Of a DNA stretch of 64,000 nt, positions 1-34,731 are shown one piece after another (position 1 is the first letter of the stretch; each line of letters begins with the position of its first letter). Source of the stretch: Synechococcales cyanobacterium bin31.maxbin.ball.101 (GTDB lineage Bacteria; Cyanobacteriota; Cyanobacteriia; Leptolyngbyales; Leptolyngbyaceae). Below the pieces are notes generated by a model that worked only from the letters and a program-made list of their open reading frames with translations, was not told the origin of the DNA and made no database searches. A program made the translations under genes and the position numbers. The stretch spans positions 980-64,979 of the forward strand of contig JAAFJU010000011.1 in the NCBI GenBank assembly GCA_013298165.1, given 5' to 3'.

Positions 1-476
1 ACTTCAATTTGATGGTCTGGAATGTTGACGATCCAGAACTCACTCACTCCTGATTCGGCGTAGATGGGGAGTTTGGTGGTGCGATCGTACTCTAGTGTGG
101 TGTCGGAGACCTCGATTAGGAGATAGATATCTTTTGCTTCGGGATGGCCAGATTCATAGAAGTCATCTTGCCATCGTAGAAGGGCAATATCGGGTTCGGG
201 CTGGGAGTATGTGCCGAGTTCGATCGGGTTTTGTACGGCAACAATATGAGCTTCTGCAATTGTCTTACTTAAGTGTGCGTTGATTCGGCTTACTTTTGCG
301 GCGTGTTTACTTCCGATCGAAGCCATGTGAACGATTTCTCCATTTAGTAATTCGTAGGGCGATCCTTCTTGAAGAATTCCGGTTTCGACCATGGCTCGGA
401 ATTCAGCGACAGTGAAACGTTTCCGTTCAAGTTGGAATGACTCTTGAGGACTGCTGCGATCGAGTTGGAGAACCAT
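1..476 (-). CDS. Uma2-family (DUF820) PD-(D/E)xK endonuclease, partial (C-terminus lies outside the window)
   Basis: My own translation of the minus strand from the ATG at 474-476: MVLQLDRSSPQESFQLERKRFTVAEFRAMVETGILQEGSPYELLNGEIVHMASIGSKHAAKVSRINAHL...PEPDIALL...IYLLIEVSDTTLEYDRTTKLPIYAESGVSEFWIVN. This is the typical Uma2 layout. The ORF is absent from the track because it runs off the window edge. Confidence 0.75.
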   Translation of the reverse strand, partial: MVLQLDRSSPQESFQLERKRFTVAEFRAMVETGILQEGSPYELLNGEIVHMASIGSKHAAKVSRINAHLSKTIAEAHIVAVQNPIELGTYSQPEPDIALLRWQDDFYESGHPEAKDIYLLIEVSDTTLEYDRTTKLPIYAESGVSEFWIVNIPDHQIE

Positions 477-31331: not shown

Positions 31332-31731
31332 TCAGAAAATGGTGAATTCCGATCGCTCTCCATCAAATTCAATCCGATATCGCCTCATGAGATCTCGTCC
31401 AACTAACATCAGATTATCAATGACCTCGCCGGGACAGCCTAAAACAATACAAGCTGAAAGGGTATACCGATCGAGCCGTAAAGCCGGCTGCATAGGGAAT
31501 CGCTAATGTAGAGACTCCGCAAACAGGAACACGAATGGCACGATCGATCGCCCTTGCCTTGACCTTCATCAATTGGTCCAATGCTACTAACGTACAGTCT
31601 GACCCCGTGTCTAAAATGGCTTGAGTGGAATAGCTCAGTGGGTTTTCGGAATTTGGGGAGAAGAGTTCGATCGGTAAAATTGGGATGGGCGGTATTGCTT
31701 CGCCTAAGTCAGTATAGGAATAGGTTGCCAT
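31332..31731 (-). pseudogene. Retropepsin-like aspartic protease, module B, interrupted by a frameshift
   Basis: Frame 1 reads MATYSY...AILDTGSDCTLVA...STLAIPYAAGF and then runs into a stop at 31417. The protease-like C-terminus (YTLSACIVLGCPGEVIDNLMLVGRDLMRRYRIEFDGERSEFTIF*) continues in the +1 frame down to 31332. The span is 400 nt, which is not a multiple of 3. Confidence 0.6.
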
Positions 31732-31732
31732 A

Positions 31733-32047
31733 TTAACGAATGACGGCACTCCGGACGATCGGATGTTTGACTTCTGAAACAACTTGGCGAATAAAAATTG
31801 GAGCATCACCGACTTGCTTTACGGCTCGATCGAATAATGCAGCAAAATCCCGATCGGCATCCATGACCTGTTCATCCACCAGCCAAACGTACTGCCCTAA
31901 ATAATCGACGATCAGTTGCGATCGTAAGTTCTCAAAAATATCGGCTTGTCGTTCCAGGTAAGCCATGGTCGGCTGATCGTCGATCGTAAGTTCATCTTGA
32001 TTGGATAATAGGATTGGCATAGGTCGATTACCTGAACGACTTTCCAT
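31733..32047 (-). CDS. DUF5678-like small protein, module B
   Basis: LGQYVWLVDEQVMDADRDFAALFDRA...PIFIRQV. Its stop codon is separated from the protease B ATG by 1 nt (TAAtATG). Confidence 0.55.
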   Translation of the reverse strand: MESRSGNRPMPILLSNQDELTIDDQPTMAYLERQADIFENLRSQLIVDYLGQYVWLVDEQVMDADRDFAALFDRAVKQVGDAPIFIRQVVSEVKHPIVRSAVIR

Positions 32048-32203: not shown

Positions 32204-33649
32204 TTAGCTGACTGATGGCGCAGGACTCAAGTTGGTTTGCTCAAGCTCACTATCTTGAATCAATTTATCGCAGAGCTTTTCATATCCAGTGAGTAATAGA
32301 GCGTCAGATGGTAAAGAGATTCGCTGACGTTGTTGAACGACCTCTAGAACTAATGGCTCTAATATCGATTCGGCATGAGCCGATCGATCGCTTGACGCAT
32401 AAATATCCCGAAGTTTACTTTCAAAATTTTGCGATTGTAATTTCTCTAAAACCGCTTGAATATCGGATTCAGATAGCAAATACTCGAACGCTAACGTCAT
32501 CAATTCAGATTCTAAAATCTTGATGCTAATTTTATTGTCATCCTCAATCACGAGATCCAAGGTTGACTGCGAGGCGGAAGATGCCGCAGACCCAGCTAGG
32601 AAACCACCGACTAACCCACCCACAATGGTTCCTAAGCCTGGGAAAATAGCGGTTCCAATTCCTGCCCCGATCGCATAACCGCCTGCACCACCCGCAACCC
32701 CTGCCGCTGTCGTTGTCACATTCTTGACAAACTGTCCACCTGACATCCGCCCTCGGACCAGTCGAGTCACATCACCCGAGGATAGGACCAATGTAGTTAC
32801 GACACCTGTCACCACATTTCCCCGCAGTAACTTGGAAACATTACTCATTGCCGCTGCACCATAAATGGCGTTTCCCCCGCGAAGTCCAGTCGCAATCCAA
32901 GAGGCAGTTTGTGCGCCCATAGTCCTCACGACTGAATCTGTAATTGGTCGAAGGGCTTGCTCTACGCCTGTGCGTCCGATCTGTGCCATGAGAATGCTGG
33001 AAACCCAGGTTACACCCCCGACTTTCAGCCCTGAAAAGCAGGCTTGTTCGATCGCAACCTCCATGGATTGCCCGTTCCATCTTGCGTGGGCAAATGCAAT
33101 CACGGCTGAAATTCCCATCGCAGTCCCTGCCACGCGAATCCCATTCACCGCATCGTAGGTAATCGATTCGATCGTGCCACATCGTGCAATATTTCGAGCC
33201 TGTGCATAGGTGAATTGCCCCTGCCGCACGATGTCCTTTGCTTGACCGGGATCGGTAACGCCCTTGACCTGACCTTTTTTAATGCGTTCTTCCATCGCCT
33301 TAATCGCTGCATCATAGGAATCCGATGGCACCTCAATCTGCATCGGCGATCCATCCGCATTCCAGTAGCGAAACTGCCCATCATGAAAGCACTCTTGAAT
33401 GCATTTCGAGCCGGAATTGCAGTATTTACTTTGAATTTGAACGCCGTCTACTAGTCGATCGGCTCCATTTTTAGCATTATCGCCACCGACCAGTTTTGCA
33501 TTCTTACCCGCTATCACATCTCGAAGATGATTTGCCTTCTCTGCCGCAAATCCATGTCCCCGCTCTGCGTTTAAAATTACGTTATCCGCATAGATTCCAG
33601 CATTGTTCGCAATACCGTTACTAATCGCTGGAATATCTTCTGGGTTCAT
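32204..33649 (-). CDS. Unplaced 481-aa protein: soluble N-domain, glycine-zipper membrane core, acidic helical C-domain
   Basis: The start is taken at MNPEDIP. The N-domain carries ERGHGFAAEKANH...GGDNAKNGADRLVDGVQIQSKY. The core holds several hydrophobic segments, including GVAGGAGGYAIGAGIGTAIFPGLGTIVGGLVGGFLAG. The last roughly 115 aa are a helical, acidic tail. Confidence 0.7.
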   Translation of the reverse strand: MNPEDIPAISNGIANNAGIYADNVILNAERGHGFAAEKANHLRDVIAGKNAKLVGGDNAKNGADRLVDGVQIQSKYCNSGSKCIQECFHDGQFRYWNADGSPMQIEVPSDSYDAAIKAMEERIKKGQVKGVTDPGQAKDIVRQGQFTYAQARNIARCGTIESITYDAVNGIRVAGTAMGISAVIAFAHARWNGQSMEVAIEQACFSGLKVGGVTWVSSILMAQIGRTGVEQALRPITDSVVRTMGAQTASWIATGLRGGNAIYGAAAMSNVSKLLRGNVVTGVVTTLVLSSGDVTRLVRGRMSGGQFVKNVTTTAAGVAGGAGGYAIGAGIGTAIFPGLGTIVGGLVGGFLAGSAASSASQSTLDLVIEDDNKISIKILESELMTLAFEYLLSESDIQAVLEKLQSQNFESKLRDIYASSDRSAHAESILEPLVLEVVQQRQRISLPSDALLLTGYEKLCDKLIQDSELEQTNLSPAPSVS

Positions 33650-33786
33650 GATGAGATGTGTCTGTAAGTCGGGTGTTATTAAGATAAAATCTAATTTCTT
33701 TCTCCGCAACGTAAAATAGGTGGTCTTATTGGCAAATTCATAGACCTGTGAAGTTATGCGACAAAACGATCGTCAAAAAATTGCCT

Positions 33787-33884
33787 TCTCCGGTTCCCCC
33801 AGAATTGGGGGCTAGGGGGCCACAACCCGATCGGGAAACTGTTTAATCAAAGCCGAAATCACAGGTGATGGGGTCCGATCGCCC
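33787..33884. repeat. 98-bp direct repeat, left copy (duplicate of the helicase 3' end plus the downstream palindrome)
   Basis: 95/98 identical to 34763-34860. On the minus strand it still encodes GDRTPSPVISALIKQFPDRVVAP*, preceded by an in-frame TAG. Confidence 0.85.
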
Positions 33885-34356: not shown

Positions 34357-34731
34357 ATGAACTCACTCTTCCCATTGCTTGAAAAAATTAAAACTAAACC
34401 AGGTCTGTACATTGGCAAAGCCTCGATCGCAGACCTCCGGATGTTCATCGTTGGATATCGATTTGCACGATCGGAAGCCAAATTGCCATCCACCGAAGCT
34501 GAAACCGACTTTTATAAAAACTTCCAACCCTGGCTCCAACTCCGGCTCAACGTCCGCACCTCTAATGCATGGGATAAAATCATACTGTTCACTGTATCGA
34601 ATGAGCAACAAGCATTTGATTACTTCTTCCAACTCTTAGGAGAATTTCTAGAACGCGATCGAGAACAAGATATTGATCCAATGCTCTTTGACTTGAGATC
34701 TGAAGCCATCATTGAGCGCAGGATTGCCTAG
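34357..34731 (+). CDS. Immunity-like protein
   Basis: It starts 6 nt after the toxin-like gene. LLEKIKTKPGLYIGKASIADLRMFIVGYRFA...F..F..WL...W..II.F...E..AF..FF.L..EF is a pattern I associate with immunity proteins next to polymorphic toxin tips. Confidence 0.45.
   Translation: MNSLFPLLEKIKTKPGLYIGKASIADLRMFIVGYRFARSEAKLPSTEAETDFYKNFQPWLQLRLNVRTSNAWDKIILFTVSNEQQAFDYFFQLLGEFLERDREQDIDPMLFDLRSEAIIERRIA

Follow-up and report, generated by a model that had tools for sequence, protein, structure and literature searches.

A conserved glycine-zipper protein of the uncharacterised YeeR_C family in an accessory region of a cyanobacterial genome

The gene and its family

The stretch of DNA analysed here (64,000 nucleotides, referred to as the window) comes from contig JAAFJU010000011.1 of Synechococcales cyanobacterium bin31.maxbin.ball.101 (GenBank assembly GCA_013298165.1, positions 980 to 64,979) and carries on its minus strand an open reading frame (ORF) whose product is almost certainly a member of the YeeR_C family (Pfam PF27347) in minimal, stand-alone form. 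The gene is found in an accessory patch that also includes a divergent Tox-PL-2 gene, an ORF of 124 amino acids (aa), two tandem ORF pairs, a DUF4351 gene and a UvrD-type helicase gene (Table 1). A gene at this place had been proposed in an original prediction made from the letters of the window, and its coordinates were correct: read on the minus strand, which is the coding one, the interval 32204-33649 is a single uninterrupted frame of 481 aa, while the plus-strand translation is ridden with stops. A longer version beginning with TTG at 33709 (501 aa) was considered and rejected, the similarity to the closest relatives reaching back no more than about 6 nt beyond the ATG at 33649. The proteins of these relatives start at the equivalent methionine, and the 481-aa reading was kept because homology and start methionine both coincide with this ATG.

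The identical protein was found on a 3.7-kb Logan contig (run SRR9948923) with the precomputed annotation PF27347:YeeR_C, and PF27347.1 is the precomputed family of all 120 homologues listed, out of more than 2,157 in a collection of 5.8 billion proteins. The original prediction had been unable to place the protein in a family, and our local searches of Pfam-A and NCBIfam likewise gave no significant match to it; its membership in YeeR_C comes from the precomputed annotation. The accompanying guess that homologues exist without annotation was right, almost all of them being named 'hypothetical protein'. A profile search of 1.84 billion representatives at 50% identity recovered 3,517 clusters at E<=1e-3, of which 819 remained at E<=1e-30. 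With these clusters and the more than 2,157 homologues, the ORF is a genuine gene and not a chance frame. Sequence searches of the PDB produced nothing significant, whether the query was the single protein or a profile of 38 sequences.

Taking one genome per species, 199 loci with proteins 45-87% identical to the one in the window were collected from Cyanobacteria, Gamma- and Alphaproteobacteria, Binatia, many Firmicutes, Riflebacteria, Chlamydiae and Campylobacterota. Levels of 45-60% are kept across Cyanobacteria, Proteobacteria, Binatia, Firmicutes, Riflebacteria, Chlamydiae and Campylobacterota. No characterised housekeeping family with conserved synteny was found among the relatives, so on this ground the original prediction stands. 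Our literature search retrieved no functional study of YeeR, YeeR_C, PF27347 or the candidate defence system PDC-M09, and no paper that mentions any of the last three names. The protein is therefore not categorically new; the family to which it belongs, as an ordinary member, is catalogued and uncharacterised.

Predicted structure and conservation

The three-part architecture originally proposed is borne out by composition. Gly, Ala, Ser, Thr and Val make up 36% of the N-terminal part (residues 1-168) and 61% of the middle part (169-358), which has 18% Gly and only five acidic residues, and the remainder (359-481) is indeed an acidic helical tail, with 22 Asp+Glu versus 10 Lys+Arg and helices predicted along it. 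All the motifs quoted at the time were located, namely NAERGHGFAAEKANHLRD (residues 27-44), GGDNAKNGADRLVDGVQIQSKY (55-76), CNSGSKCIQEC (77-87) and the glycine zipper (317-353), and those of the N-terminal domain rank among the best-conserved columns of the family.

An AlphaFold2 model based on an alignment of 150 diverse representatives reached a predicted local distance difference test score (pLDDT) of 87.1 and a predicted template modelling score (pTM) of 0.81. It replaced a first, poor model made from 38 close homologues (pLDDT 54). In the alpha/beta head the near-invariant polar residues are H32, E37, N40, D44, D64, R65, Q73, K75, Y76, Y95, E106 and D110, and they are predicted to sit on helix a1, at the start of strand b2 and within b3. 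The central region is modelled as helices 160-191, 196-225, 229-256, 264-289 and 304-326 (pLDDT ~87-95), with conserved polar residues at D166, K209, Q223, R226, K273-L-L-R-G-N278, S303, Q306, K309 and N310. Five further helices form the predicted C-terminal domain (369-389, 394-405, 409-418, 422-439 and 449-473), where I-E-D-D-A (368-372), E396 and R441 are conserved. Foldseek comparisons gave no match at E<=0.001, either for the good model against PDB and BFVD or for the poorer one, in which only the head is confident, against PDB; as modelled, the YeeR_C fold is unmatched in both databases.

Glycine zipper and membrane character

The glycine zipper noticed in the original prediction is real and conserved column by column. 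In the 150 representatives G320, G324, G328, G332, P337, G340, G344 and G348 are each kept in roughly 84-99% of the occupied columns, with hydrophobic residues between the glycines and about 6% of charged residues. From its sequence, the pattern is that of two helices faced with small residues and joined by a proline turn. It does not look like the disordered linker that the original prediction had considered as the contrary case, since the zipper is conserved position by position and is nearly free of charges.

The several helix-length hydrophobic segments that had been proposed for the middle part fared worse. Apparent insertion energies were obtained as simple sums of the Hessa values in 19-residue windows. 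The family medians are +3.2 kcal/mol for helix 160-191 and +3.4 for the zipper, rising up to +7.3 in other segments, and windows of +1 kcal/mol or lower occur in less than 5% of the members. In the Kyte-Doolittle scale a single 19-residue window (334-352, within the zipper) reaches 1.75, the others staying at 1.0-1.4. By insertion energy these segments are not canonical transmembrane (TM) helices, and they are modelled together with head and tail at pLDDT ~87-95. Judged in this way, the middle part is only marginally hydrophobic and the protein is not a canonical polytopic membrane protein.

What the protein does have is the glycine-zipper 2-TM motif, two adjacent charge-free helices with GxxxG repeats, as found also in SlyB-type and other Gly-zipper families. 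The sequence match to SlyB is marginal (E=4.1) and the Pfam Gly-zipper models do not match even at E<=1, so the motif is shared but membership is not supported. Furthermore, the Gly-zipper families consist of small lipoproteins or outer-membrane proteins, whereas the YeeR_C hairpin is part of a 470-aa protein that is probably cytoplasmic. Residues 177-369 gave weak profile matches to the tape-measure families PHROG 794, 167 and 1047 (E 3e-6 to 2e-4). A relation to phage tape-measure proteins was rejected, the match being compositional and limited to the small-residue region, with no tail genes in the context.

Domain fusions and topology

Many relatives are larger than the protein in the window, 96 of the 150 best representatives having at least 600 aa. 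We clustered 109 N- or C-terminal extensions and scanned examples of each type with Pfam. The commonest one (37 of 109) is a segment of ~130 aa that is PH/GRAM-like by motif, appears at either end of the module and in one example has a sub-threshold EbsA-like match (E=9e-4). Sel1/TPR repeats (13), repeated Zn-ribbons (5) and TerD (4) follow, together with many unique extensions and a GTPase fusion, and strongly hydrophobic segments are present in 13 of the 109. Both termini of the module are most probably cytoplasmic, because the PH-like domain is found at both ends and the GTPase and Zn-ribbons directly precede the head; any membrane crossing would therefore have to occur in pairs. The recurrent fusion to membrane anchors and PH-like domains suggests a membrane-proximal function.

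Extensions can differ even between very close relatives. Among the closest ones, such as P0002 (90% identical) and P0004 (84%), there are a bare form of ~480 aa and a form with ~230 aa of C-terminal TPR repeats, and it is P0002 that runs on into the repeats where the protein in the window ends. Since the closest relatives exist in both forms, a single narrow clade of cyanobacteria has seen the TPR extension either acquired or lost.

Comparison with Escherichia coli YeeR

The YeeR_C module also makes up, by sequence comparison, the C-terminal half of E. coli YeeR (b2001, CP4-44 element), which is homologous to the protein in the window across the whole module. Full-length E. coli YeeR (838 aa) has 34% identity over residues 30-441 of our protein (tblastn), and residues 408-508 of the K-12 version are 47% identical to residues 30-129 (BLASTP E=7e-30). 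E. coli YeeR has in addition an N-terminal extension of ~400 aa with some 5-6 hydrophobic segments and a Cys-rich stretch, whereas the cyanobacterial protein is the bare module.

The K-12 yeeR gene has been described as a truncated remnant (PMC6480617). In our comparison the K-12 protein (510 aa; locus L001, 8780-10312) keeps the N-terminal hydrophobic region, and its share of the module ends after the first ~100 residues, as seen against locus L082 (6780-9296). Its label 'inner membrane protein' is uninformative about the module, because most of the module is missing there. YeeR has been described as uncharacterised (PMC4807369). Its gene is co-transcribed with agn43 and irmA under the control of OxyR (PMC4807369; PMC8614746), and both Ag43 and YeeR are dispensable for the release of IrmA (PMC4807369). 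The settings of the two genes differ as well, yeeR being located on an integrative element, where it shares an OxyR/Dam-controlled operon with the genes for Ag43 and IrmA, whereas the gene in the window is solitary in a cyanobacterial accessory region.

Mobility and genomic context

For the analysis of neighbours, ORFs were called in 80 loci and the resulting 1,068 proteins were clustered all-against-all. No conserved partner gene was found among these loci; besides YeeR_C itself, no family of neighbours is present in more than seven of them. Even the 87%-identical Synechococcales relative (L002) has in common with the window only the gene and ~140 nt downstream, and the 215 bp upstream of the start codon are not conserved between them. 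As no neighbour is conserved, even at this short distance, the gene moves alone, and YeeR_C is a single mobile gene with no obligate partner.

The clearest example of this mobility is the Vibrio parahaemolyticus homologue (60% identical), which is located within an array of small ORFs in the same strand adjoining an IntI-type integrase. Each ORF lies between attC-like repeats of ~120 nt that open with a TAAC inverse core and close with a GTTAG core. The 5' boundary of the YeeR_C cassette is identical among strains and the neighbouring cassettes are different. The V. parahaemolyticus homologue has what is expected of an integron cassette, one ORF between attC sites within an array linked to an integrase; the copy in the window is in a different, cyanobacterial context. 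The chromosomal integron of V. parahaemolyticus (locus L089, 1-9660; also L085-L090) includes cassettes coding for acetyltransferases, ABM and zf_Tbcl proteins and many unknowns.

YeeR_C is rare in phages (1 of 50,697 records) and on plasmids (10 of 72,556 records, among which are several multi-megabase, chromosome-sized ones). The phage copy, from the Oscillospirales phage IMGVR 15609780 (locus L100, 5479-7431), is a 650-aa homologue located between the endolysin gene, which it directly follows, and a DNA invertase, which is a typical position for a moron or a lysis-module gene.

In many lineages the context is typical of inducible stress or anti-phage genes. An HTH-WYL regulator is found upstream in seven Firmicute loci and in the Lactococcus plasmid pNCDO184A, a TerB-like gene immediately precedes the YeeR_C gene in four loci, and small GTPases recur among the neighbours, not universally. 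Defence genes are scattered as immediate neighbours, including type II restriction-modification, Eleos (LeoA/LeoBC), MADS, AbiL and several PDC candidates, and NERD-helicase and AAA genes are downstream of the GTPase-fusion copy. In Lachnospiraceae and relatives (loci L043, L053, L069, L073, L051, L055, L059 and L062) the order, specific to this subfamily, is an ORF of 115 aa, a TerB-like one of 133 aa, YeeR_C and an ORF of 108-157 aa, which may represent a local operon of three or four genes; the last ORF has no Pfam or PADLOC match. Plasmid pNCDO184A (locus L083, 4940-8780) carries the WYL regulator, a YeeR_C protein of 665 aa (RefSeq 'glycine zipper family protein') and an ORF of 285 aa, residues 156-269 of which match the N-terminus of the PADLOC model for BnzA (Bunzi) at E=1e-13. 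The Selenomonas plasmid copy likewise has a gene of ~285 aa downstream of it, unrelated to the one in Lactococcus.

Possible function

We tentatively read the protein as a self-contained, horizontally mobile effector of stress response or phage defence that would act at the cytoplasmic face of the inner membrane through its zipper hairpin. The head (residues 28-158) would be the sensing or catalytic part, against which the small-residue helical region and the acidic C-terminal domain might be packed in the resting state. The Gly-x3-Gly hairpin (315-357) would be the element entering the membrane, probably as an oligomer, since a lone hairpin is too weakly hydrophobic to insert. Upon a trigger, the protein would perturb the integrity of the membrane or the ion balance and growth would stop. 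Family membership, conservation, mobility, the lack of obligate partners, the predicted fold and the zipper pattern come directly from the analysis; membrane insertion, oligomerisation, the trigger and the defence role are things that we infer.

Two comparisons point in the direction of defence. PADLOC gives a weak but near full-length match to PDC-M09B (E=3e-8, residues 31-364 on profile positions 67-397 of 480), and other YeeR_C members match this profile too. PDC-M09 is a multi-gene defence candidate. The second one comes from the integron of V. cholerae, in which 18% of the tested cassettes of unknown function were anti-phage (bioRxiv 10.1101/2024.07.02.601686), with no YeeR_C member among them. 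One such cassette, Epona, has an Mrr_cat nuclease domain and a holin-like domain with two TM segments (bioRxiv 10.1101/2024.07.02.601686). Epona and the Vibrio YeeR_C gene resemble each other by analogy, both being single-gene cassettes in which an N-terminal polar alpha/beta domain would be followed by a two-helix membrane element. The description of Epona does not include the large conserved helical region and the C-terminal domain found in YeeR_C (~470 aa).

Several observations weigh against a membrane-acting defence effector. In the AlphaFold2 monomer the latter half of the zipper region (residues 325-361) has a pLDDT below 50; such low confidence could be compatible with a zipper that inserts as a pair or an oligomer and is no proof of it. 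The best 19-residue window of the protein has an insertion energy of +3.3 kcal/mol, and no segment reaches the hydrophobicity required for insertion by the translocon. Six of the extensions open with signal-peptide-like segments, and in these proteins the module might be outside the cytoplasm. The matches to PDC-M09B are weak (E=3e-8 and 5e-7), far below the score expected within one family, and the partner PDC-M09A is absent among the 25 commonest families matched by 139 flanking proteins. The counts of defence genes close to YeeR_C copies are raw tallies of neighbours. The Citrobacter copy always occupies one site, with an Ail/Lom gene on one side and arsRBC on the other, the Methylovulum copy adjoins gyrB, and many loci have purely housekeeping neighbours. 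Co-transcription with Ag43 and IrmA suits a surface or virulence role as well as it suits defence, and the literature search yielded no experiment on any YeeR_C member.

Some of these observations would also fit a protein of the accessory envelope or stress response with no part in defence, devoted to Ter-like sensing or buffering of membrane, ion or metal stress or to the support of surface structures, with its adhesin-linked expression in E. coli as an instance. Fusions to TerD and TerB neighbours agree with such a role, as do the OxyR/Dam-controlled agn43-yeeR-irmA operon, the neighbourhood of arsRBC at a fixed site in Citrobacter and the housekeeping surroundings of many copies. We regard it nonetheless as rather unlikely, because a patchy, cassette-like distribution with no synteny is unusual for a physiological stress system, because WYL-regulated and defence-island contexts recur, and because the dispensability of Ag43 and YeeR for IrmA release means that no surface role has been demonstrated.

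The effector reading can also be carried further, at the price of becoming speculative. YeeR_C might be a hitherto unrecognised system of abortive infection or defence that consists of one protein and has a new fold, in which a divergent Mrr-like head would sense or cut phage nucleic acid, the zipper hairpin thereby freed would oligomerise in the inner membrane and the membrane potential would collapse; the fused PH-like, TerD, GTPase, TPR or TM domains would then tune the trigger or the localisation. If true, this would give a function to E. coli YeeR and to a class of Vibrio integron cassettes.

The nuclease part of this proposal can be considered also by itself, as a membrane-held Mrr-like enzyme of the PD-(D/E)xK type whose head cuts incoming or modified DNA and exerts its effect by cleavage, helices and zipper serving only as an anchor. 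We consider this improbable. The order of elements predicted for the head (a-b-b-b-a-b in the AlphaFold2 secondary structure) would fit, the conserved E37...D64...Q73-x-K75 resembles by eye the D...QxK of Mrr_cat and recalls the E...D...(E/Q)xK order of PD-(D/E)xK nucleases, the dense invariant polar residues suggest an active site, and Epona, as described, combines Mrr_cat with two TM segments. The program hhalign picks the same register, with VGGDNAKNGADRLVDG..IQSKY on VGGTGDGGIDG...VQAKRW of Mrr, at a noise-level score (P=0.28, probability 0.2% against the Mrr alignment). Neither Mrr_cat nor any other PD-(D/E)xK family of Pfam matches at E<=1, and among the 50 matches listed for each of the two models in Foldseek searches of the PDB there is no restriction-endonuclease-like structure. 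Moreover, an enzyme of this kind would not account for polar residues being so extremely conserved across the helical region and the C-terminal domain. The Mrr-like head, with a motif resemblance and no statistical support, may be kept as a low-probability lead.

Still less probable is a soluble cytoplasmic enzyme or scaffold in which the Gly-rich stretch is flexible or serves for helix packing, with no role at the membrane. The hydrophobicity is marginal throughout, a globular structure is predicted with confidence except for residues 325-361, and forms of 470 aa have no signal peptide, all of which would suit such a protein. The strict i/i+4 periodicity of the glycines, the two hydrophobic, charge-free helices and the invariant proline are, on the other hand, not linker-like; fusions to true TM segments and PH-like domains are recurrent, and NCBI annotators named one member 'glycine zipper family protein'. 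Finally, a selfish cassette of the addiction or toxin kind, or a pore-forming toxin exported against other cells, is very improbable: toxin modules abound in integron arrays and genomic islands, the gene in the window is among toxin-like genes (Tox-PL-2), a few members begin with signal-like segments and one phage copy directly follows an endolysin gene, but no antitoxin or immunity neighbour and no downstream gene is conserved among the 80 loci, ten fusion proteins scanned have no Rhs, PAAR, LXG or other delivery domain, the dominant extensions are PH-like and Sel1/TPR, the GTPase, Zn-ribbon and TerD fusions indicate a cytoplasmic life, and the family is rare on plasmids and in phages.

The family is of interest by its extent, with thousands of members in many phyla and minimal forms that remain unusually similar, 45-60% identical between cyanobacteria, enterobacteria and clostridia. 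Its members of clinical and genetic relevance include a gene of the E. coli Ag43 operon and cassettes of Vibrio chromosomal integrons. Should YeeR_C be an effector of defence or membrane stress, a compact new module would be added to those described and a long-standing 'y-gene' would be explained. Otherwise it is still a well-defined target for structure-function work, in which the conserved residues and the zipper offer obvious mutations.

Neighbouring genes in the window

Table 1 Features of the YeeR_C gene, its predicted protein domains and the neighbouring genes (positions in the window)
Feature	Position	Strand	Basis and remarks
Complete coding sequence, YeeR_C member	32204..33649	-	481 aa plus stop; ORF list, translation
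N-terminal helix, residues 3-27 (predicted)	33569..33643	-	pLDDT 79-93; variable save Y20, D22 and N23
Alpha/beta head, residues 28-158 (predicted)	33176..33568	-	pLDDT 92-98; order a1-b1-b2-b3-a2-...-b4-a3
Motif block, residues 30-77, RGHGFAAEkANHL...VGGDNAKNGADRLVDG..IQsKYC	33419..33562	-	Sequence
Central helical region, residues 160-326, Gly/Ala/Ser/Thr-rich (predicted)	32672..33172	-	AlphaFold2, hydrophobicity, conservation
Glycine-zipper hairpin, residues 315-357: GxxxGxxxGxxxG, Pro337 turn, GxxxGxxxG (predicted)	32579..32707	-	Column conservation
Acidic C-terminal helical domain, residues 362-473 (predicted)	32231..32566	-	pLDDT ~86-97 over 371-470
Unconserved low-confidence tail, residues 474-481	32207..32230	-	pLDDT ~40; alignment ends
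Presumed promoter region, 215 bp	33650..33864		Between start codon and divergent Tox-PL-2 gene
Tox-PL-2 (papain-fold toxin 2), 161 aa	33865-34350	+	Pfam E=7e-30; divergent, upstream of the YeeR_C gene
ORF of 124 aa with no family match	34357-34731	+	Starts 7 nt after the Tox-PL-2 ORF
Tandem pairs, small ORF overlapping an ORF of 130 aa	30646-31265 and 31417-32047	-	130-aa ORFs retropepsin-like

Simple scans around the gene detected no sigma-70-like promoter and no intrinsic terminator. Neither the Tox-PL-2 gene nor the ORF of 124 aa that follows it has a PADLOC match, and the latter could be the immunity partner of Tox-PL-2. In the two tandem pairs the small ORFs have 76 aa and 104 aa, the latter with a weak DUF5678 match. 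The first of the 130-aa ORFs matches Asp_protease_2 and has a DTGS motif, and the second has the DTGS motif and no Pfam match. By their arrangement, both pairs look like modules of the toxin-antitoxin style.

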